A program made the position numbers and the translations under genes. DNA of 64,000 nt, taken from positions 1 through 64,000 of the IMG/VR virus record IMGVR_UViG_3300020045_006384; one strand, 5' to 3'. Shown piece after piece: positions 12,537 to 42,170 of this stretch. The notes below the pieces were generated by a model, which did no database searches, was not told where the DNA came from, and was given only the letters and a program-made list of their open reading frames with translations. The DNA comes from a virus. Position 1 is the stretch's first letter. Each line of letters opens with the position of its first letter.

Positions 12537-14771
12537 TTATTGATTATTTTTAAGTTGGGCATTACTCCAATTTTTTTCAAAAAAAGAATCCTGTGAAGCT
12601 TGTTTAACTTTATTATTTTGATTAGCTATCATAGAATTAGTTCTTTTAACTCTATCTTCTCTTAATAGAAACAACATACCTGCGGCAGACACCCTATCAA
12701 AGTTACCATCACTATTCCAAGCTATACATTCTTCTAAATAAGGAATACTTCTAATATGATGAAGTTTTAAACTATTATCTTCTTGGTCATCTTCATTATA
12801 TTGAGTTAACATATATTGTGCTTGCAATAATCTACCCCATTTATTTATTTCTTTATTAGCATGAGTACCTTTAGCTTTATTACCATATAGATTAGTTGCT
12901 TTAACTAATTCCATATCTTTTAGTATTTGTGGTACATCACATAAATAATGTAAACAATTTCTAGCATCAAAATAACTAAACAATCCTTTTAAGTTAGATT
13001 CATAATTAGCTTCACCATTATAAAATTTTAGTATACGCAATGCAGTTTCATAAGCATCATTAGCTAATCTAGGTCTACCTGTATATTCACAAACTATTCT
13101 ATCTGTAAAAGTATCCATACCAATTATACTAAATAAGGATTGTCCAGTATCAGCATCAATAGGGTCAATACCAAATATGTATCTTCCTCTAGCAATCTCA
13201 CCATTAGCATTCTTTTTAGGCATTTCAAATATTTCTAAACAACCTGTTCTATCTGTATCAGAACTATCATAAGCTCTAAGTGGATATTTATCAGTTGTCA
13301 TTTCCCATTTAGTATTACCAGCATTGTCATAAACTATTTCTCCAACATAATGTTCAGCAAGAAATGATTCTTTTTTAGGACCAATACTTTCTAAGTAATC
13401 TTTTATATCAGCTACAGGAAATACTGTACCCTCAGTACGCATAATAGCTTCTTGAGGTGTAATAGGTTCTTCAGCTTTCTTTTGAGTAATAGCTCTTGCA
13501 TCAGATGAATTATATTTTACAACATGTCTATCTGATAAAATTTCAACTAATGCTTTAATAACATCAGGCTCTCCACATGATTCATCATAGCATTCATTTC
13601 TATTTAAATATGCTCCCCAAAAGAAACCACATTCTAAATCACCATTAGCTCCTTTATCAAATACATTAGGAATACCTAATATATTATACGCTCCAGGTTT
13701 ATAGAATAATTTTTCAGAACCTGCAAATGAAGCTCCTTCAACACCACCTGTTCCACCTGCTAACATAAATCCAAATCCTACACCACCATCTTCTACGGCT
13801 TTTCTATTAACATTCCATGCTTTCTCAAGATTAGGAAACAAACCATCTTCTTCATAGTGGATATAAGGTCCTCTAATACCCCTGGCTTTATCAGGATTAT
13901 CTTTTAATGATATACATTTAACTGATGATAATAATCCTTTACGTGAACCGTATTCATCTTTATAACCAAGTTGAACATACATTTCTTTATTTGCATCAAT
14001 TGTTCTCATACGAGGTAACGGTGTATGTTCAGCTATCCAGTCTAAACAATCTAATATTTTACCCCAGATACCACTATCTCCAGATAAGAAAGTTTTCTCA
14101 GAAGCTAAATGGTGATTAATATTACCAGATCCTGTAAATACATACATATTTCTTGGTGACTCAGATGCATTTTTAAAACTGAATCCAATACCACGAGTTT
14201 TTAATACTTTACCATGTTTACCTATTCTTTTAGCATTAGAAGTATAATGAAAATATAAGTAATCTCCTAACCAAGGTTTTGGAAATTTTCTTACACGTTC
14301 ACCTTGAGCACCATCTTTATTTCTAGCAACTGTTTTAACAATCCATATAGGACTATAGTTCCAATAAAAATATAATTCTCCAGGTATCCATTCACCATCT
14401 GATTCACGTACTAAACCATGTTTCCATTTACGTAGTTCTTCTTTCCAATATTCAGCATATTCAGATTTAGGATTACTGTTTGGTGGTATATTAGTATACC
14501 TACCATTCTTTTCAAAGAATATAGCAGGTTGTCTAAAATAATCCATATCCTCTAATATATGAGGATTGGTTATATCTACATGAATTCTACCATCATCATA
14601 TAAATCTGATTTAGGTCTATCTTTAGCAAACCCTCTTATATGTTCAGGTGCTATTAAATTTTTAATAAACTTAATAGTTGAGGTATATTCAATTAAATTT
14701 TCATATACTTCTTTTGGTAATGTTTCTTTTAACTCTTGTGTAATTGGACTTTGGTACTTATTTAGTTCCAT
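12537..14771 (-). CDS. terL: Terminase large subunit
   Basis: Walker A-like LKTRGIGFS, Walker B HYEEDG, GGTGG coupling motif, RNase H-like GIDPID and NFDRVSA. Confidence 0.9.
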   Translation of the reverse strand: MELNKYQSPITQELKETLPKEVYENLIEYTSTIKFIKNLIAPEHIRGFAKDRPKSDLYDDGRIHVDITNPHILEDMDYFRQPAIFFEKNGRYTNIPPNSNPKSEYAEYWKEELRKWKHGLVRESDGEWIPGELYFYWNYSPIWIVKTVARNKDGAQGERVRKFPKPWLGDYLYFHYTSNAKRIGKHGKVLKTRGIGFSFKNASESPRNMYVFTGSGNINHHLASEKTFLSGDSGIWGKILDCLDWIAEHTPLPRMRTIDANKEMYVQLGYKDEYGSRKGLLSSVKCISLKDNPDKARGIRGPYIHYEEDGLFPNLEKAWNVNRKAVEDGGVGFGFMLAGGTGGVEGASFAGSEKLFYKPGAYNILGIPNVFDKGANGDLECGFFWGAYLNRNECYDESCGEPDVIKALVEILSDRHVVKYNSSDARAITQKKAEEPITPQEAIMRTEGTVFPVADIKDYLESIGPKKESFLAEHYVGEIVYDNAGNTKWEMTTDKYPLRAYDSSDTDRTGCLEIFEMPKKNANGEIARGRYIFGIDPIDADTGQSLFSIIGMDTFTDRIVCEYTGRPRLANDAYETALRILKFYNGEANYESNLKGLFSYFDARNCLHYLCDVPQILKDMELVKATNLYGNKAKGTHANKEINKWGRLLQAQYMLTQYNEDDQEDNSLKLHHIRSIPYLEECIAWNSDGNFDRVSAAGMLFLLREDRVKRTNSMIANQNNKVKQASQDSFFEKNWSNAQLKNNQ

Positions 14772-16219
14772 TGTCTTTCATTGAGTATAATTGTTTCAGT
14801 TGATAATACTGTTTTAGCTATAGACACTGCATTTAATAATGCACATCTAGTTACTTTAAGTGGATCTATAATATTTTCATCAAACATATTATCAGAATTT
14901 TTAAATACTGCACCATTTGCAATAATTCTATTAACAGGAGCTGTTAAAGATATTCTAATACTATTATTAAGATCACTTTTAAAAATTGAAATATTATTTA
15001 CAATAGATCTTAGTGCTTCACCACCACCTTGTACAATTCCTTCTTCTAATGCACAAGCAACAGCTAACACAGCATCATCATATCTATCTTTACGTTCTTT
15101 CATTTCTATTTCAGAACCACCACCTACTTTAATAACAGATGCTTTAGCTGTAAGATTAGCAATACGTTTGTTAAGTATTTCTACATCATAATCAGTTAGT
15201 TCTTTATTTTTAGAAAGCTCTGTTAAACTACTTACAATATCTTCAACATTAACATCTTCATGTTTTATTAGTAAACTATTGTTTTTATTAATAACACATG
15301 AACCAAGCTTACCTAAACATGATGGTAAATATGATTTGTTTGACTGTACAGCAACAATATCAGCTCCAGTAAAGTCAGATAAATCTCTAAGATAATCTTT
15401 TCTTACAGGACCAAATCCTGGTGCTTTAATAACACAAGCGTTAATGTTTTTATTAAGAACTAATGTTTCTAACTTACGTAATTCTTTAGGAGCAATATAC
15501 TCTGTAATGATAAGTAAGTTTTCTTTTTCAGAACTAATCTTTTCAAGTATTTGTCTAAATAATAAAAGGTCTTCTAGTTTTCCATCTAATAAAAGAACAT
15601 ATGGGTTTGTAAACTCGCAGGTTTCTTTGTTAGTATTACTAAATAGTTTAGACATATATGATACATCTAATTTCATTCCTTCTATTGTTTCTAGAGTATC
15701 TTCTAAATTATTAGATTCTTCAGCTTTAACTATATTAGAAAAGTTATAAGCCTGTTGTATAATGTCACCAATCTGTACGTCATTATTAGCAGATATAGTA
15801 GCAACATGTTTAATATCTTCACGTTTTAATTCTTTTGAATTAAGTTTTAATTGTTCAATAACTTTTGGAATAATTTCATCAAAAGCTTTATTAATATCTT
15901 TAGATTCAAAACCTTTTAAATTTTGAATAAAAGCATTAGCTAATACAATAGCTGTAGTTGTTCCATCACCTGCTTGTTTAACTTGTAATTCACAAACTTC
16001 TTTTACAAGTTGTGCTCCAATATTTTCAACAGCATTCTTAAATGATATTTCTCTTGCTACTGATACACCATCTTTAGTAACTTTAGGTTTACCAAATTCA
16101 TCAGTTATAATAACTGTTTTACCATTAGGTCCTAAAGTACATGCTATAGCATCTGTAAATTTCTGTATTCCACCAAATAATAATTCTCCAGCTTCATCTT
16201 TAAAATATATTTCTTTCAT
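14762..16219 (-). CDS. groEL: Phage chaperonin GroEL-like
   Basis: TLGPNGK, VTKDGVSVA, AGDGTTT, KAPGFG, IKVGG, EEGIVQGGG, IIDP.KV. Likely start MKEIY at 16219; no GGM tail. Confidence 0.9.
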   Translation of the reverse strand: MKEIYFKDEAGELLFGGIQKFTDAIACTLGPNGKTVIITDEFGKPKVTKDGVSVAREISFKNAVENIGAQLVKEVCELQVKQAGDGTTTAIVLANAFIQNLKGFESKDINKAFDEIIPKVIEQLKLNSKELKREDIKHVATISANNDVQIGDIIQQAYNFSNIVKAEESNNLEDTLETIEGMKLDVSYMSKLFSNTNKETCEFTNPYVLLLDGKLEDLLLFRQILEKISSEKENLLIITEYIAPKELRKLETLVLNKNINACVIKAPGFGPVRKDYLRDLSDFTGADIVAVQSNKSYLPSCLGKLGSCVINKNNSLLIKHEDVNVEDIVSSLTELSKNKELTDYDVEILNKRIANLTAKASVIKVGGGSEIEMKERKDRYDDAVLAVACALEEGIVQGGGEALRSIVNNISIFKSDLNNSIRISLTAPVNRIIANGAVFKNSDNMFDENIIDPLKVTRCALLNAVSIAKTVLSTETIILNERQWN

Positions 16220-16220
16220 A

Positions 16221-16787
16221 TTATTCAATTGCGAAACCATCTTCAAATAGTCCCATTGTTCTACTCCCTTTTGTTCTTCCTTCTAATTCTTTTTGTTCAG
16301 CTAATACTTCTTTATAAGCAGCTTTTAAATCTTTCATAATAATAGGAACTGATTTAAGTGATCCTGTAATAACAGCTAGTGTAGTTACTGTAGCACCTTT
16401 ATCTGTTCTTTCAGCTAATAAAACATCTGTCATTTCTAAATACTTAGATATATCATCAGCAGCTTTTAAAGACGATTTATATAACTTAGCAATAGGACTT
16501 AATGATCTTGAGTTATAAAAAGCAATAGCATCTTTTATTACTTGGTCTATTTTCCAATCTGATGGTAAACCAATATCTTTAATAATTTCTCTAGTCCTTT
16601 CAGCATCGTTTACTAAATAAACATAATCAGATCTAATATCTGTAAAGTAATAAATAAATAACATTTCTTTAAATGCTGTTTCTTTATTTCTATTTTTATC
16701 TCTTTTTAGTATTGCTTTAAAAGGTAACAATCCCCACGCTTCTTCAGTAACAACTAAATTAAATTCACGCATTTCAAATAATTTCAT
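16221..16787 (-). CDS. Conserved crAss-like protein (terminase small subunit candidate)
   Basis: 188-aa helical protein upstream of terL/groEL; the function is inferred from position only. Confidence 0.45.
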   Translation of the reverse strand: MKLFEMREFNLVVTEEAWGLLPFKAILKRDKNRNKETAFKEMLFIYYFTDIRSDYVYLVNDAERTREIIKDIGLPSDWKIDQVIKDAIAFYNSRSLSPIAKLYKSSLKAADDISKYLEMTDVLLAERTDKGATVTTLAVITGSLKSVPIIMKDLKAAYKEVLAEQKELEGRTKGSRTMGLFEDGFAIE

Positions 16788-25221: not shown

Positions 25222-25508
25222 ACATATATTAAATTTAAATAAAACAATTATAAAATTACTTTATTTTGAATTTCAATTACTAACAGGAATATTAGTAATT
25301 GATAACAATAATCCTAGCTTACCTCAAATTTATGATAATCATAAATTATTAAGTATGTCTACAAATTTTGATGATTTTAAATCAATGAAAGATGCTGAAC
25401 CAGTTTCAGATATTAATCATTTAATTAAAGAAGAACCTTTAAGTGCTCAAGAAAAAATAGTAGTTAAAATAGGTGCGTAAAATAAATATTAACAAATAAA
25501 ATTTAAAA

Positions 25509-25568
25509 AGATGTTTAACAGCAAACAAAAACAATTATTTAGCGGAAATAAAGTAACACAAACATCTG
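25509..25568 (+). promoter_or_regulatory. Stem-ACAGCAA RNA unit covering the start codon (putative autoregulatory operator)
   Basis: AGATGTTT (25509-16, contains the ATG) + A + ACAGCAA ... AAACATCT (25560-67) + G; same architecture as the array units. Confidence 0.65.
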
Positions 25569-27172
25569 CTTTTGTTAGTGCAGGATTAAAAAATTCTGCA
25601 GAAACTGTATCAGGAAATGGTGCAAAAAAATATTCAACAACGGGTAATCCATTTGTTGATCAATTTGGTAAAATAGGTTCATATAAAGCACCAAGATCAT
25701 TTAATGATATATCTGCTGATTGTGAAATATTATGGACTAAAAATAAATTATTGACAGTAATGTTTATTATTTATTTAAGAGTTATAAATAGAATTGTTAG
25801 ATTCTGGGATAATACTTCTACAACAGTACCTCAAAAAGGTGGTGAAATGAAACATGAATCAATTATGAGAATGATTTGGTTACATATGAAATCTGAAGAA
25901 TCATTTTGGAAAAATATTCAATTATTTATTTTAGCTGGATCTTGGAAAGATATTATAACTATGTTACAATATGATTTAGTATATAATGGTTGGGATGATC
26001 GTAAACTTAATTGGAATAAATTTGGTGATTTAATATTGTCAGGTTTAAAAAATGAGAATACATCTGAATTACTTAAAAAGTATTTACCTCAAATTAAATC
26101 TAATAATCAATGTAAAACAGTTGAATCTCAAGCTGATAATTTAATTAGTAAATGGATTTGTTCATTATTATTTGATAATAAAAAAGAAAATTCTGGTTGG
26201 ACATATAAAAAATATAGACAACTTAAAACTTCTGGAACAGCACATCAATGGCAACAATTAATATCTCAACGTAAATTTGAAGAAATTGATTTTAGTAAAA
26301 TACATGGTAGAGCTTTAAATTTATTAGTAAGAAGTAAATTCTTATTTAATCAAAGTTTAAGTGAAAAATATGCTGAATGGGCTGTAAAACCTGAAACAGT
26401 AATTAAATACACTGGGTTTGTACACGAATTATTTGATAAATTACCTAAAACACTAGTTGGTTTAAATCAAGGTGAACAAGCTACTATTAATAAACAATTT
26501 GAAACATTGGTTAAAAAAGGTGGTGAACAATCTCAAACATCATTAATTGTTGTAAGAGATACTTCAGGTTCAATGAGTTCTGCAGCAACTGGTACAACAA
26601 TGTCTTGTTTTAATGTAGCAAAAGCATTAGCATTATATTTTAGTGAATTCTTAACAGGAAGATTTAAAGATGCTTTTATTGAATTTAATTCAGTTGCTCA
26701 AATGCATACATGGAAAGGTAATACTGTATTAGAAAAATGGTATAACGATCATTGTAGTTTTGTTGGTTCTACTAATTTTCAATCTGTTATAGATTTAATT
26801 TGTAGATTGAGATCTGAAGGTATAGAAGAATCTGAATTTCCAACAGGTATATTATGTATATCTGATAGTGAATTTAATCCTGCACAATTAGGTCAAACTA
26901 ATGTTGATGCAGCATTAATTAAACTAAGAAAAGTTGGATTTAGTGAAGATTATGTAGATAATTTTGTAATAGTTCTTTGGAACTTACAATCTAATGCATA
27001 TGGACGCGGTACTGGAGAAAAATTTGAAACATATGGTAATGTACCAAATGTATTTTATTTTAGTGGATATTCAGCATCAGTAGTGTCATTTCTTACAAAT
27101 AAGATAAACAATGCAGAAGAATTATTTAATTCTGCAATGAATCAAGAACTATTAAATCAAGTAGAGATTTAA
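25511..27172 (+). CDS. DUF2828-family Ro60/TROVE-like protein with C-terminal vWA domain
   Basis: SGNGAKKYSTTGNP.VD.F, R...KGGE, GSWKD, KYLP, MIDAS motif DTSGSMS, STNFQSV, ISDSEFN, VLWNL, SGYS. Confidence 0.8.
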   Translation: MFNSKQKQLFSGNKVTQTSAFVSAGLKNSAETVSGNGAKKYSTTGNPFVDQFGKIGSYKAPRSFNDISADCEILWTKNKLLTVMFIIYLRVINRIVRFWDNTSTTVPQKGGEMKHESIMRMIWLHMKSEESFWKNIQLFILAGSWKDIITMLQYDLVYNGWDDRKLNWNKFGDLILSGLKNENTSELLKKYLPQIKSNNQCKTVESQADNLISKWICSLLFDNKKENSGWTYKKYRQLKTSGTAHQWQQLISQRKFEEIDFSKIHGRALNLLVRSKFLFNQSLSEKYAEWAVKPETVIKYTGFVHELFDKLPKTLVGLNQGEQATINKQFETLVKKGGEQSQTSLIVVRDTSGSMSSAATGTTMSCFNVAKALALYFSEFLTGRFKDAFIEFNSVAQMHTWKGNTVLEKWYNDHCSFVGSTNFQSVIDLICRLRSEGIEESEFPTGILCISDSEFNPAQLGQTNVDAALIKLRKVGFSEDYVDNFVIVLWNLQSNAYGRGTGEKFETYGNVPNVFYFSGYSASVVSFLTNKINNAEELFNSAMNQELLNQVEI

Positions 27173-27182
27173 TAATAATATA

Positions 27183-27774
27183 AGGTGTAGAAACTGCAAA
27201 TCATATACATAAAACTATATAATTAGCAAACAAGCATCATCAGTTATAATAAAAATATAATAATTTTAAATCTTAACACTACACCTGTTAATCTCAAGAT
27301 TTAATTGTAAAAGTATAATAAAATTAACAACGATGATGCTTTTATAAGAATACTTACAGCAATTTATAAAGATCAATTTTGTAACTTGAAACCTTAATGT
27401 ATTCTGATAAAATGACTAACAGCAATTAACTTTGTAAAATCAACTTGTTGTCATCAGTTCGATTCTGATATTTCAATATGTCGTAAGACCAGATATTGAG
27501 ATTAGCTCAGTTGGTAGAGCGTAAGTCCACAAAACAAATAGTCATTTGACAAGATTAGTAACAGCAATATATATAAACACCAAACTTTTAATTTGACACG
27601 TTATATACTAATCTGATAAGTTTTCATACAGCAATATATAAATGCTTCTGGTGCCGTAATTGAGGTTCGAGTCCTACTAGTAGTGTAATGGATAACACGA
27701 CGTAAAAATGAAAACTGATAAATTCTCATACAGCAATTAAACTTTTTTATGGAAAAAAAACAAATTGAGAATTG
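27183..27774 (+). ncRNA. Tandem array of six Y-RNA-like stem-closed RNAs
   Basis: Units 27183-27287, 27347-27406, 27410-27548, 27552-27615, 27619-27717, 27721-27774. Each has a 7-9 bp terminal stem, then AC(A/T)GCAA, a variable cargo, the 3' strand and a G. Confidence 0.8.
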
Positions 27775-27811
27775 TGAATAAAATAAATATTAACAAATAA
27801 AATAAATAATT

Positions 27812-28478: not shown

Positions 28479-28827
28479 AAAATGGGGGCGACTGGCTTTG
28501 ACTAATAGTTTAGTAAATTTAATAATCAGCACAGAGAGATAACTGTTCAAACTAAGGTGAATTTAATTAAACGGCAAAAATCAAATTAAAGCCAATATGG
28601 CTAAAGTAGTATCTTTAATCAACAGCAATGTTGAAGAAGATTTATTAATTGCAGCATAATTTTTCGAGGTTTATCTAGTACCTTAAACTAGAGCTATAAA
28701 AGTTCTTCAACTTAAATGAAGTGGTGGAGTCATTCTGATTTATCAGTTGACCTAGTGTATCTAAACACATAAAACTATAGTAAAGCTGTATACATTATTA
28801 TATTGAATTATTATTAACACCCGAGTT

Positions 28828-29595
28828 CAAGAGCGGACTCACTATATAGGGATATATAGTTAAAAATTGGAAGAATTGCTGGAACACTAAAGCCATTAAG
28901 GTATGTACAAAATTATAGTACACTAAGTAGTCAATCAGCAGCCGAGCTTACTAGAAGAAGTAAGAAGGTTCAACGACTAGGGAATCTACGGATAGCCCAC
29001 AGCCTCCAACATCTAGAACAGATGATGATATAGTCTAATCATTAGTGAAAACTAGTGCAGAAAAATAGTCTTTCATAAGCTAATTTTCTATTAATTTCAT
29101 TTTCTTTATATTTACCATTTTTAATTGTTACTAGATCATGATACTTTAAAATAGTATTTATTCTATGTAATTTTTTAGGATGATGTGATTGTAATAATTT
29201 ACAAAGTTTTATACATTTTTGATTACCTGTACAACTTAAAGAATAACCTATTGAATGATTTTCTTTTTTAGAAGGTTTTGTAGAAATATAAAGCATTAAT
29301 TGATGATTATCAAGTAAAAAGCTTTGCATTTTTTTCAATAGTTCTAATTCAGTATTTGTAAAATCAATTTTAATACTTTTATATTTATCAGTTTTATTGT
29401 TTTTACATAAACTAATAGAACCATCAGCATCAAAAAATCCAGAAATGTAATTTAAATTCATTGTTTTTAATTTTTAATTAATATTTAAGACAAGGGTTAG
29501 ATATAACCCTATTGCAAATATACAAAATATATTATTAAAAAACAAGTAAATTAAAAGAAATTTTATATAAATTTTATATATGAAATTAAAAAATG
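28828..29595 (+). mobile_element. Group I intron in the tmRNA T-loop
   Basis: P1 GAGTT/GACTC with U.G at the splice site; core GAATTGCTGGAA, AATCAGCAG, GTTCAACGACTA, ATGATATAGTCT; terminal omega-G at 29595. Confidence 0.9.
29042..29461 (-). CDS. LAGLIDADG homing endonuclease (single motif), antisense within the intron
   Basis: YISGFFDADGSI motif; own TATATTTG promoter at about 29516-29547 on the minus strand. Confidence 0.85.
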   Translation of the reverse strand: MNLNYISGFFDADGSISLCKNNKTDKYKSIKIDFTNTELELLKKMQSFLLDNHQLMLYISTKPSKKENHSIGYSLSCTGNQKCIKLCKLLQSHHPKKLHRINTILKYHDLVTIKNGKYKENEINRKLAYERLFFCTSFH

Positions 29596-29639
29596 CGACT
29601 CTCGGCGCCTCCACAAATAATTAACTAACAATTAACATT

Positions 29640-39377: not shown

Positions 39378-39617
39378 ATGTCAAAACCATATTCTGAATT
39401 AGCAATGGCTGTAGATCTAATTAAAAATGAATATAATGTAGATAATCCTATTATCATATCAGAATTGATATATAATGATTTAGGAATATGTACAAGTATT
39501 CATGCAATTAGTGATTATTTAGAAATTAAAGAACAAGAACTTAAAAAAAATAAAAATTATGAATCCAATGTTAAAAGTGGATTTCTACAAACCACATCAT
39601 CAGGACATGTATCCTGA
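39378..39617 (+). CDS. Hypothetical protein
   Basis: 79 aa between polB and NAMPT. Confidence 0.45.
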   Translation: MSKPYSELAMAVDLIKNEYNVDNPIIISELIYNDLGICTSIHAISDYLEIKEQELKKNKNYESNVKSGFLQTTSSGHVS

Positions 39618-41238
39618 GAATATGACTAAATTATATTCAAATGGTACTTGTAGAAAAAGTAGATTATCTGGAATTGACAACGTTGTTGTATTTGGTATGC
39701 AACATTTTATATTAGAATATCTTATTAAAGATTTTAATGAAAATTTCTTTGGAAATCAATATAGACTGAATTATGACGGAACTGTTCTTAATTTTAGTAA
39801 AGGTCATCCTTTTGTAAAAATACAATCTGATTTTAAATCTAAAATTATTAATGAATATAAACGTCATATTCCAATTAATACAAAACGCATTGAAGCTTTA
39901 TGGGATTTAGGTTATTTACCTATTAAAATTAAATCTTTAGATGAAGGTACTTTATGTCCAATTGGTGTACCAATGTTTACAATAACTAATACACATCCAG
40001 ATTTTGCTTGGTTGGTTAATTATTTAGAAACTTTAATTAGCACATGTTTATGGCAACCTTATACATCTGCAACAATTGCTTATGAATTTAAAAAAATACT
40101 TAACAAATATGCTATTGAAACTACAGGTTCAACTGAAGGAGTTCAATGGCAAGGACATGATTTTAGTATGCGTGGAATGTCTTCTGTGGAGTCTGCTATT
40201 TTATCAGGTATGGGACATCTTACGAGTTTTACTGGTACTGATGTTATCCCTGCTATTTATCAGTTGGAAACTTCTTATAGAGCAGAGGGACTTATTGGAG
40301 CAAGCGTTCCTGCTACTGAACATTCTGTTATGTGTATGGGTCAAAAAGAAGCTGAAATAGATACGTTTAAAAGATTACTAAAATCATATCCAACTGGTAT
40401 ATTATCTGTTGTATCTGATACTTGGGATTTATGGAAAGTTTGTACTGAATATTTACCTCAACTAAAAGAAGAAATTCTTGCAAGAAATGGTAAATTAGTT
40501 ATTAGACCTGATTCAGGTGATCCTGTTGATATTATTTGTGGAGAATTAGATATTCAAACTCCTAAACCTAATGAAATTACAATAGAATTTGTAAATAAAT
40601 TTAGAAATAATCATATTAAAGAAATTGAAAAAAATGGATATTGTGATACAGCTTTTGGATGGAGAATAACTAAAGATAGTTATTTAAAAAAACCAAAAGA
40701 TGCTGGAGTAATTGAACTTCTTTGGGATGTATTTGGTGGTACTGTAAATGAACAAGGTTATAAAGTGTTAGATTCTCATATTGGAGCAATCTATGGTGAT
40801 TCAATTACTATGGAAAAAGCTACTCAAATTTGTGAAAGACTTAAAGCTAAAGGATTTGCAAGTACTAATGTAGTATTTGGTATTGGTTCTTTTACTTATC
40901 AGTATAATACTAGAGATACATTTGGTTTTGCTATGAAAGCTACTTATGGTGAGATTACTCATAAAAACATAGGTAGAGGATTACATGATAAAACTACTGT
41001 AGAAGCTAGAGAAATCTTTAAAGATCCTATAACTGATGACGGTACTAAACGTTCTAAAAAAGGTTTATTATCTGTTGGTTCAGCAGGTGGAGATGCAGGT
41101 TCTGAAATTGTTTGTGAAGATCAACAAACTTGGAAACAAGAATCTGAAGGTTTACTTACAACTGTATTTAAAAATGGTAAACTTGTAAAAGAAACTACTT
41201 TAGAACAAATTCGTGAACGTATAAATTCTACATTATGA
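39559..41238 (+). CDS. nadV: Nicotinamide phosphoribosyltransferase-like (NAMPT/Namat)
   Basis: DFYKPHH, HDFSMRG, ATEHSVM, SVVSDTWD, VIRPDSGDP, IYGDSIT, FGIGS, RDT.GFA.K, KRSKKG. Confidence 0.9.
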   Translation: MNPMLKVDFYKPHHQDMYPENMTKLYSNGTCRKSRLSGIDNVVVFGMQHFILEYLIKDFNENFFGNQYRLNYDGTVLNFSKGHPFVKIQSDFKSKIINEYKRHIPINTKRIEALWDLGYLPIKIKSLDEGTLCPIGVPMFTITNTHPDFAWLVNYLETLISTCLWQPYTSATIAYEFKKILNKYAIETTGSTEGVQWQGHDFSMRGMSSVESAILSGMGHLTSFTGTDVIPAIYQLETSYRAEGLIGASVPATEHSVMCMGQKEAEIDTFKRLLKSYPTGILSVVSDTWDLWKVCTEYLPQLKEEILARNGKLVIRPDSGDPVDIICGELDIQTPKPNEITIEFVNKFRNNHIKEIEKNGYCDTAFGWRITKDSYLKKPKDAGVIELLWDVFGGTVNEQGYKVLDSHIGAIYGDSITMEKATQICERLKAKGFASTNVVFGIGSFTYQYNTRDTFGFAMKATYGEITHKNIGRGLHDKTTVEAREIFKDPITDDGTKRSKKGLLSVGSAGGDAGSEIVCEDQQTWKQESEGLLTTVFKNGKLVKETTLEQIRERINSTL

Positions 41239-42170
41239 AAATATTAAATTTAGTAGATTTAGAAAAATCTGAAATTAAATATGAAATTTCTAGATTTCCA
41301 GATGGTCAACAACAAGTTAAAATATTAGGTGAAACTTCAGTCAGTTATAAACCTGTAATTTCACATGGTACATTTTTAAAAGGTGTACAAATTAAAGCAC
41401 GTTTAAATAATTTTAAAGATCTAGAATTAATTATTTGTGCAACTAAATCATTACGTGAATTAGGAGTTAAACAAATTCATCTTTATACACCATTCTTTTT
41501 AGGAAGTAGAAGTGATAGAAAATTTGAAGAAGGTTCTAATAATTATCTTAAAGATATTATTTGTCCTATTATTAATTCATTAAATTTTGAATCTATAACA
41601 GTTTTAGACCCACATTCTAATGTATTAGAAGCTTGTTTAAATAATTTTAAAAAAGTTGACAATTTAAAATTAGTAGATTTTTTTATAAAAGATTATACTA
41701 AATTATCAAGATTTAGTGATTATTTTAATAAAGAAGATTTAAACAAATTTATTATCATTTCTCCAGATGCAGGTGCAAATAAAAAAATCTTTAAAATAGC
41801 TGAACAAATTAGTTATAAAGGAGATATTATTACTTGTACTAAATCTAGAGATGAAAATGGTAAATTAAGTCATATTAAAGTACCTTATGATGAATCATTA
41901 GGAACTACAAATAAAGATTTAATTATTATAGATGATATTTGTGATGGTGGAGCAACATTTATTAATATTGTTAAAGCCATTCAAGAATCTGAAATGTTCT
42001 ATGGTAAAATATATCTTATTGTAACTCACGGAATCTTTTCTAAAGGTTTTAATGAATTATCTAAATATTTTGATGGTGTTTATTGTACTAATAGTTATCA
42101 ATCTATAATAGTTGATTTAGATAAAGATAAATGGATATCAAATAATGTAAAACAATTAAATGTATTCTAA
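41235..42170 (+). CDS. prs: Ribose-phosphate pyrophosphokinase-like (Prs/Adps)
   Basis: FPDGQ, RSDRKF, LDPHS, SPDAGA, IIDDICDGGATF, VTHGIFS. Confidence 0.9.
   Translation: MKILNLVDLEKSEIKYEISRFPDGQQQVKILGETSVSYKPVISHGTFLKGVQIKARLNNFKDLELIICATKSLRELGVKQIHLYTPFFLGSRSDRKFEEGSNNYLKDIICPIINSLNFESITVLDPHSNVLEACLNNFKKVDNLKLVDFFIKDYTKLSRFSDYFNKEDLNKFIIISPDAGANKKIFKIAEQISYKGDIITCTKSRDENGKLSHIKVPYDESLGTTNKDLIIIDDICDGGATFINIVKAIQESEMFYGKIYLIVTHGIFSKGFNELSKYFDGVYCTNSYQSIIVDLDKDKWISNNVKQLNVF

Follow-up and report, generated by a model that had tools for sequence, protein, structure and literature searches.

Does a phage that encodes a protein shaped like Ro60 also encode a set of RNAs for it? The question is raised by a 64,000-nt stretch (the window), positions 1 to 64,000 of a 100,000-bp IMG/VR virus record (IMGVR_UViG_3300020045_006384) with direct terminal repeats and a GC content of 23–29%. 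Head, portal and terminase genes are present, and the remainder of the 100-kb genome holds open reading frames (ORFs) of 1364–2226 aa. In the window, a gene of the DUF2828/DUF7788 family is followed by an array of six units that share one frame: a terminal stem of variable sequence, the motif ACAGCAA beside its 5' strand and a G after its 3' strand. We consider it likely that gene and array specify a phage ribonucleoprotein (RNP) built like Ro60 with Y RNA and displaying mimics of tRNA parts, in which the units would be expressed, would be bound by the protein and would act through these mimics.

Six framed units behind the gene

The 640 nt on the 3' side of the gene (ORF 25511-27172, plus strand, 553 aa) contain no plausible ORF, and the sole ORF of the array is one of 42 aa on the minus strand. 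Gene and units are arranged as follows, with scores given for the covariance model R1 introduced below and for the Rfam model of Dictyostelium Class I RNAs (RF01414).

25511-27172, plus strand: gene of the Ro60-like protein, 553 aa (predicted TROVE-like helical ring and vWA domain with a metal ion-dependent adhesion site, MIDAS; DUF2828/DUF7788 family)
27183-27287, plus strand: unit 1, 8-bp terminal stem (27183-27190 / 27279-27286, G at 27287), variant motif ACUGCAA, AU-rich interior
27347-27406, plus strand: unit 2, short, 59 nt, stem 27347-27353 / 27399-27405; R1 59.8 bits; RF01414 32.5 bits, E 6e-4
27410-27548, plus strand: unit 3, long, frame around a permuted tRNA-like module, stem 27410-27418 / 27539-27547
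27552-27615, plus strand: unit 4, short, stem 27552-27560 / 27606-27614; R1 59.2 bits
27619-27717, plus strand: unit 5, long, stem 27619-27627 / 27708-27716; RF01414 17.5 bits
27721-27774, plus strand: unit 6, short, hairpin of U-run / AUGG / A-run, stem 27721-27728 / 27766-27773; R1 43.6 bits; RF01414 29.7 bits

The original prediction, made from the sequence alone, had described six tandem units whose terminal stems all pair, each 5' strand being followed by the motif and each 3' strand by G. The six stems pair as it wrote them and a G directly follows the 3' strand in each of units 1–6; the motif is present too, but is not always directly adjacent to the 5' strand, ACAGCAAT lying 0–2 nt downstream. 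Units 2–6 are spaced by the G plus 3 nt; unit 1 is atypical and lies 60 nt from unit 2. Not noticed at that stage were the resemblance of unit contents to tRNA, the odd features of unit 1 and a further, seventh frame at 25509-25568.

Taken singly, the stems count for little in DNA of 25% GC, where each of them is attained in 2 to 58 of 300 shuffles. Unlike single stems, the set of stems and motifs is not due to chance, since ACAGCAAT clusters in the array (seven plus-strand copies in the 100-kb genome, five of them within the array, and none on the minus strand), matches to R1 are confined to this locus, and the counts of stems and shuffles in related loci given below point the same way. R1, which was trained on 59 short units from the window and from other loci with start-codon sites left aside, has four matches in the 64-kb window at E up to 1, and each of them lies at the locus of the Ro60-like gene and array. 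A CRISPR or type III toxin-antitoxin repeat array is ruled out by the variation of the units in sequence and length, and real tRNA genes by ARAGORN, which finds no tRNA in the window.

A Ro60-like fold in a different sequence family

The protein had been proposed to be a Ro60/TROVE-like vWA protein, and a structure prediction had been suggested as a check. A confident AlphaFold2 model from 69 diverse sequences (predicted local distance difference test 89.5, predicted template modelling score 0.88) has a helical-repeat ring followed by a vWA domain, the arrangement that marks Ro60/TROVE proteins, and all 11 matches seen among Foldseek ranks 1–12 are Ro60/TROVE structures with full-length alignments. 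A family hidden Markov model (HMM) searched against PDB sequences likewise has Ro60 as its best match (E 0.003), across the MIDAS region, where D350, S352 and S354 (DxSxS) are invariant in the 69 sequences and T421 and D452 are at least 90% conserved. By sequence, the only Pfam match at E up to 1 is to PF25043 (DUF7788; 46.7 bits against a cut-off of 27.1). Model and Foldseek matches, family HMM and MIDAS conservation, together with the DUF7788 match, therefore indicate a predicted Ro60-like fold within a different sequence family; the proposed identity holds for the fold, but the Pfam match is DUF7788 and not TROVE. Relatives at 63–74% identity do match PF11443 (DUF2828), and PHROGs places the window protein in phrog_850, 'RNA-binding protein'.

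The family is large, with more than 2,400 homologues among 8,000 candidates scored and 2,012 clusters at 50% identity. A scan of cellular genomes from 185,579 species, with a less diverse alignment as query, returned a single locus, a truncated match on a 115-kb contig of a metagenome-assembled genome (MAG). A 'Ro-like' annotation of the family is already present in phage records. Literature searches on the two domain names and on 'Ro-like RNA binding' brought up nothing beyond genome notes, lists in plant papers that include DUF2828 proteins, and an overexpression screen in which LeBron gp53 was toxic. Two fused forms were seen (P0235/P0124): one joins DUF2828-DUF7788 to a C-terminal 2H phosphoesterase of the '2'-5' RNA ligase' superfamily (PF13563), and the other has an N-terminal DUF3037 domain. 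No fused or longer form was found in a profile search of proteins of 1039–2965 aa.

Gene and units recur together in distant phages

The pairing of gene and units was followed in a comparison set of 49 viral loci (351 kb) with homologues at 44–95% identity. At least one stem-plus-ACAGCAA unit on the gene's strand was found in 45 of these, with up to 7–9 units in tandem, mostly 3' of the gene. R1 at E up to 0.01 gave 95 matches, all on the gene's strand and none on the opposite strand. A count of stems at motif sites, made without preselection for pairing and with shuffled downstream sequence as control, found a stem of at least 7 bp at 163 of 193 plus-strand ACAGCAA sites, 126 of these being followed by G, as opposed to 41 with a stem and 5 with a stem and then G in the shuffled control. 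The minus strand has 29 ACAGCAA sites, five with a stem and two with a stem and then G. In an alignment of units (A3) the shared frame reads UAAG, stem, (Y)ACAGCAAAU, A-rich cargo, stem, CUGAU; ACAGCAA and the A preceding it are invariant and all stem positions vary. As described for the window, units beside homologous genes retain the motif and vary in their stems.

Beyond this set, tblastn finds the family in 251 phage records, and the hosts of carrier phages include E. coli, Salmonella, Staphylococcus, Campylobacter, Bacillus, Enterococcus and Mycobacterium. In seven of eight cultured-phage loci, units lie directly beside the gene or in an adjoining tRNA cluster:

Leptolyngbya phage Lbo-JY46: five units
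E. coli phage SUSP1: three units, among tRNA genes 3' of the gene
Bacillus phage Skywalker: units present
Staphylococcus phage 6ec: three units
Campylobacter phage CP30A: two units
Enterococcus phage Porthos: units present
Mycobacterium phage Tourach: three units 3' of its 'Ro-like RNA binding protein'
Phage GAP32: DUF2828 and DUF7788 both present; no unit within 4 kb; an RNA ligase gene precedes the homologue

Seven of the eight proteins carry both DUF2828 and DUF7788, that of Lbo-JY46 carries DUF7788 only, and none of the eight matches TROVE at E up to 0.01. From the units seen in these loci it follows that the motif is kept across protein identities of 22–27% and host GC contents from about 25% to more than 60%, with the stems changing. 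The type of unit 6 recurs in other loci and in SUSP1. Covariance-model and flank scans thus find units beside homologous genes down to 22% protein identity, as the original prediction would have it, and every test that could be run and might have told against that prediction favoured its interpretation.

tRNA-like cargo inside a constant frame

In the minimum free energy (MFE) fold of unit 3, the frame encloses a T-arm, a closed 7-bp acceptor-like hairpin and a D-arm. The T-arm is canonical (ATCAG-TTCGATT-CTGAT), and the succession of T-arm, closed acceptor-like hairpin and D-arm within a terminal helix is the layout of the bacterial Y RNA-like YrlA (RF02553). The YrlA model itself matches only part of unit 3 (27445-27524, 24.2 bits, model positions 23–85 only), below its gathering score of 69 bits, which none of the units reaches; the best relative is in Porthos (47.8 bits). 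Unit 5 combines a degenerate T-loop (GGTTCGAGTCC) with a D-arm-like GTGT-AATGGATA-ACAC and fails a strict T-arm test. This test, which required a 5-bp stem and TTCRANY, was applied to units followed by G only (134 of 169), those of at least 85 nt being counted as long. Canonical T-arms were found in 40 of 54 long units versus 3 of 80 shorter ones, and two long units of relatives match the Rfam tRNA model.

Short units have a different signature. A set of 69 distinct short units yields 61 predicted hairpins, of which 30 close a 7-nt loop. In 25 of these 30 loops, position 2 is U and position 6 is a purine; over 100 shuffles, 7-nt loops averaged 2.7 (maximum 8) and those with both U2 and R6 averaged 0.37 (maximum 2). 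The 'anticodon' triplets of the 7-nt loops are UUU (8), UUG (3), UGU (3), CGU (2), GCA (2) and others. In unit 4, a CAAA / UUUG helix with the 7-nt loop CUUUUAA, recognised by eye, resembles the anticodon loop of tRNA-Lys UUU; this helix is so weak that the MFE fold of a near-identical copy in locus L002 does not show it, and the same loop is predicted in orthologous units elsewhere.

The protein had also been proposed to load a set of interchangeable cargo RNAs, which fits both kinds of insert as well as an exchange seen in metagenomic contigs. Of the public sequencing runs listed as carriers, none is recorded as RNA, and the four examined (three labelled RNA-Seq but probably DNA, one DNA) contained diverged relatives only, as contigs. 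Contigs from two of these runs keep the flanks of unit 3 and have its interior (27424-27532) replaced by 82 and 70 other letters, so that in these two contigs the cargo has been swapped inside a constant frame.

A seventh frame over the start codon

The same frame also occurs at the start of the gene.

25509-25568, plus strand: frame-like hairpin over the gene's own start codon, AGATGTTT-A-ACAGCAA ... AAACATCT-G; R1 38.2 bits, E 1.8e-6; RF01414 27.3 bits

As RNA, this segment pairs AGAUGUUU-A-ACAGCAA...AAACAUCU-G around the AUG. Among 44 related loci, nine have the motif within codons 3–5, and a stem of at least 7 bp accompanies it in all nine. A helix of at least 7 bp is present in 19 of 19 distinct start regions that read AAGATG versus 1 of 13 that lack it, many of these being close relatives. 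Whether the protein represses its own translation through this hairpin is a hypothesis for which we see the chances as about evenly balanced.

Resemblance to YrlA and to Dictyostelium Class I RNAs

Systems of Ro60 and Y RNA are known in bacteria and phages (PMC4201824; PMC7824862). Ro60 (Rsr) with YrlA (RF02553; Chen et al. 2014, PMC4201824) and the present locus have in common a ring-shaped protein of TROVE and MIDAS-vWA parts, partner-like RNA genes that adjoin the protein gene, 5' and 3' ends joined by a terminal helix, a permuted tRNA-like cargo (T-arm, closed acceptor, D-arm) and RNA-repair genes nearby. Unlike Ro60, the window protein belongs to the DUF2828/DUF7788 family and has no Pfam TROVE match; the phage arrays reach 7–9 units, many units of about 55–65 nt contain only an anticodon-loop-like hairpin, and a copy of the frame stands on the start of the phage mRNA. 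The phage handle, as we call the stem with ACAGCAA, differs from the handle in the Rfam YrlA consensus.

A likeness in the frame was found in Class I RNAs. Kjellin et al. (2021, PMC7919456) describe these RNAs of about 60 nt as consisting of AAG, a covarying 6-bp stem, an 11-nt motif, a variable region and CUGU, and present them as unique to dictyostelids or social amoebae, linked to multicellularity and of unknown molecular function. The core of the 11-nt motif is UACAGCAA in the RF01414 consensus. Phage units share with them the 5'-(A)AG, a short terminal stem that varies in sequence and shows compensatory changes, (CCU)UACAGCAA beside the 5' strand, a variable remainder, a 3' end of ...CUG(U) and a length of about 60 nt. 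They differ in having stems of 7–9 bp instead of 6, in lacking the DUSE promoter that lies about 60 nt upstream of Class I genes, in standing in tandem arrays and in including long tRNA-like members; because the units abut, there is no room for a promoter for each.

RF01414 has seven matches in the whole genome to which the window belongs, five of which are units, the best being unit 2 at 32.5 bits. In five of six phage genomes searched the best matches are units, and the sixth, CP30A, has one weak match only, which shares the gene's strand and is found a short way upstream of it, in the place of the units. The best score in five cultured phages is 39.3 bits (Lbo-JY46), and every phage unit scored stays short of the 41.5 bits that Rfam sets as gathering score. 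Seven of 14 control genomes likewise have matches to the model at E up to 1, none above the cut-off. Phage units and Class I RNAs have the same frame, at scores below the Rfam cut-off.

Proteins pulled down with DdR-21, which is one of the Class I RNAs, are Rnp1A/CIBP, GuaB, NdkC and DDB_G0281243, the last of unknown function (PMC7919456); it has no further mention in the literature and supplements searched. A protein atlas query for a link between dictyostelids and DUF2828/DUF7788 returned viral clusters only. Supplemental Table S4 of PMC7919456 lists rejected outgroup candidates with the motif, including one from A. thaliana with a stem, TTACAGCAAT, an end in ...CTG and a covariance-model score of 40.

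The units also bear comparison with phage tRNA clusters and operator mimics. Mimics of anticodon arms exist in mRNA operators, such as the thrS operator. Phage units similarly lie in or beside tRNA clusters and have hairpins with anticodon-loop signatures; they are unlike both in that they are not tRNAs, have no acceptor CCA end and carry their cargo on a shared non-tRNA handle. No phage array of tRNA decoys or anticodon mimics was found in the literature search, and a search on the motif gave primers.

The original prediction had known of no description of such an array for this family. We found none either: neither Rfam 15 nor the open literature searched, subscription journals lying outside its coverage, describes an RNA partner of the family, its arrays, anticodon-loop cargos or the resemblance to Class I RNAs. 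Rfam 15 at gathering thresholds named no unit, in a scan that also missed a group I intron found by a narrower one.

Proposed mechanism and alternative explanations

The predicted fold, the conserved frame with its strand bias and covarying stems, the tRNA-like content and the linkage to the gene across distant phages are the grounds on which we posit the following. The setting of the gene near tRNA clusters, tmRNA genes and an RNA ligase gene, the fusion of one homologue to a 2H phosphoesterase and the lack of a plus-strand terminator-like site between gene and array speak for it too. The constant handle (5'-AAG, a terminal helix of 7–9 bp of any sequence, a single-stranded (U)ACAGCAA(U) by the 5' strand and a G after the 3' strand) would be what the protein recognises, each RNA adding a variable cargo. 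In long units this cargo would be a T-arm, on its own or joined by a closed acceptor-like hairpin and a D-arm, that is, a tRNA 'elbow' as in bacterial YrlA, and in many short units a hairpin of 4–6 bp with a 7-nt anticodon-like loop (U2, purine 6), UUU being the commonest 'anticodon'. The array is probably co-transcribed with the gene and then cut into abutting units (...CUG-AU-AAG...). The RNP would present tRNA look-alikes and could serve as a decoy or adaptor for enzymes that act on tRNAs, such as anticodon nucleases and repair or modification enzymes, and the start-codon hairpin may allow the protein to repress its own translation.

Several observations weigh against this proposal. The window protein matches neither Pfam TROVE (PF05731) nor Pfam DUF2828 (PF11443) at E up to 1. 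No unit was found in the flanks examined of 4 of the 49 loci (L026, L028, L031 and L037), in GAP32 or in one MAG locus, and in the clade L024–L049, from one sample series, the units lie 1.9–4.5 kb upstream and are not followed by G. Counts of stem covariation in A3 are circular because its units were selected for pairing. The anticodon-like hairpins are weak, with MFEs of about -1 to -3 kcal/mol, and the MFE folds of units 2 and 6 of the window and of the L002 copy of unit 4 show another structure or none. At the start codon, the exact motif occurs in just 9 of 44 loci, and the hairpin shows a correlation of presence and absence without compensatory change.

We regard it as unlikely that the handle is bound by another host or phage protein, such as a chaperone, nuclease or modification enzyme, with the Ro-like gene a mere neighbour in a region of RNA genes containing tRNAs and tmRNA. 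Units of SUSP1, Skywalker and Porthos do lie among or beside tRNA genes, those of the L024–L049 clade are kilobases from the gene, and the one protein shown to bind a Class I RNA directly in Dictyostelium is Rnp1A, which has an RNA recognition motif (PMC7919456). Yet the units track the gene across 22–27% protein identity and unrelated genome types, often within 20–100 nt, the window has an array but no tRNA genes by ARAGORN, and a copy of the handle stands on the gene's own start codon. Slightly less probable still is that the frames are processing or punctuation signals of a polycistronic RNA-gene transcript (cleavage sites or stability hairpins) and that the protein acts on other RNAs. The fixed CUG-AU-AAG junctions of abutting units and the position of units between tRNA genes in some phages would suit such signals, but a 7-nt single-stranded motif that is invariant from actinophages to phages of the window type, together with conserved types of cargo, exceeds what a cleavage signal needs, and the window frames enclose tRNA-like modules and do not flank real tRNAs. 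Both alternatives account for the link to the gene and for the invariant single-stranded motif less readily than a Ro60-like RNP does.

The tandem arrangement, and a 30-nt direct repeat that brackets gene and array, might instead suggest selfish or structural DNA repeats without RNA function, akin to repetitive extragenic palindromes, miniature inverted-repeat transposable elements or recombination sites. This we hold to be very improbable, as it is contradicted by the absolute strand bias relative to the gene (95 to 0) and by RNA signatures, namely T-arms and anticodon loops; the stems moreover vary in sequence with pairing retained.

If the RNP proposal is right, a large family of unknown function gains a concrete candidate RNA partner and a testable recognition motif, and Ro/Y-like RNPs in phages can be multi-RNA arrays that show separate tRNA parts, which bears on the conflict of phages and bacterial defences over tRNAs. 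The system is carried by cultured model phages. A wider reading is possible, if rather doubtful: the handle (AAG, stem, UACAGCAA ... CUG) might be the recognition element of the whole DUF2828/DUF7788 branch, with Class I RNAs as its eukaryotic members. Dictyostelids, and perhaps plants, would then have a DUF2828-type binder of the 11-nt motif, in an RNP held in common with, or taken over from, phages that infect the bacteria on which they feed, and the phage arrays would be anticodon-loop and tRNA-elbow decoys on a ring protein that blunt tRNA-cleaving defences or steer tRNA repair. The resemblance would give a first lead outside dictyostelids on the nature of Class I RNAs.

Further features of the locus

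Gene and array are bracketed by two copies of a direct repeat, and unit 1 takes part in a second helix:

25473-25502, plus strand: direct repeat copy A, 30 nt (GTGCGTAAAATAAATATTAACAAATAAAAT), 8 nt upstream of the start codon of the Ro60-like gene
27774-27803, plus strand: direct repeat copy B, 30 nt, 8 nt upstream of the next ORF (27812)
27232-27241 / 27332-27341, plus strand: long-range helix of 10 bp, AAGCATCATC / GATGATGCTT, between the interior of unit 1 and the spacer before unit 2

The repeat copies differ at two positions and each lies 8 nt before an ATG; they may serve as promoter, 5' UTR or cassette border. Their 23-nt core has two plus-strand copies only in the 100-kb genome, at 25480 and 27781. 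No plus-strand terminator-like site was found between gene and array, and a sigma-70 promoter scan returned 36 sites, with 36.4 expected. Unit 1, whose variant motif (ACTGCAA in DNA) starts at 27193, has a z score of -3.8 and is kept in loci L002 and L003; it has no match to R1. In L003 the long-range helix reads AAGCACTACT / AGTAGTGCTT, with both strands altered and pairing retained. It crosses the terminal stem of unit 1 like a pseudoknot, and a conserved TTAATTGTAAAAGTATAAT lies between its two strands.

Downstream of the array, the window contains an interrupted transfer-messenger RNA (tmRNA) gene:

28484-29614, plus strand: tmRNA gene with tag ...ANMAKVVSLINSNVEEDLLIAA* and a G3-U70 acceptor, interrupted in the T-loop by a group I intron, about 770 nt long
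28818-29057, plus strand: group I intron match (RF00028, 79.8 bits)
29042-29461, minus strand: LAGLIDADG homing-endonuclease ORF inside the intron (Pfam PF14528 and PF00961)

The intron bounds are about 28826/28832 to 29594/29600. ARAGORN finds no tRNA or tmRNA in the unspliced window sequence, and calls the tmRNA, for 20 of 784 junction pairs, only once the insert has been cut out in silico; Rfam, too, misses the gene unless the insert is removed. PHROGs labels the intron ORF (29042-29461) an HNH endonuclease.

In other phages, homologous genes adjoin tRNA clusters, tmRNAs and an RNA ligase gene. A tmRNA directly follows the array in L003 (L003:5806-6208), a tmRNA and a tRNA cluster precede the gene in Enterococcus phage Porthos (L057:94-444), and tRNA genes lie right behind the array in L006, L010 and L014. 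In locus L038, an array of four units precedes the homologous gene, and about 1 kb further upstream is a Hatchet ribozyme (L038:1514-1599; RF02678, 68.6 bits, cut-off 51). Elsewhere in the window phage, the regions 39559-42170 and 14762-16246 cover genes of NAD salvage (nicotinamide phosphoribosyltransferase and ribose-phosphate pyrophosphokinase) and a GroEL-like chaperonin.

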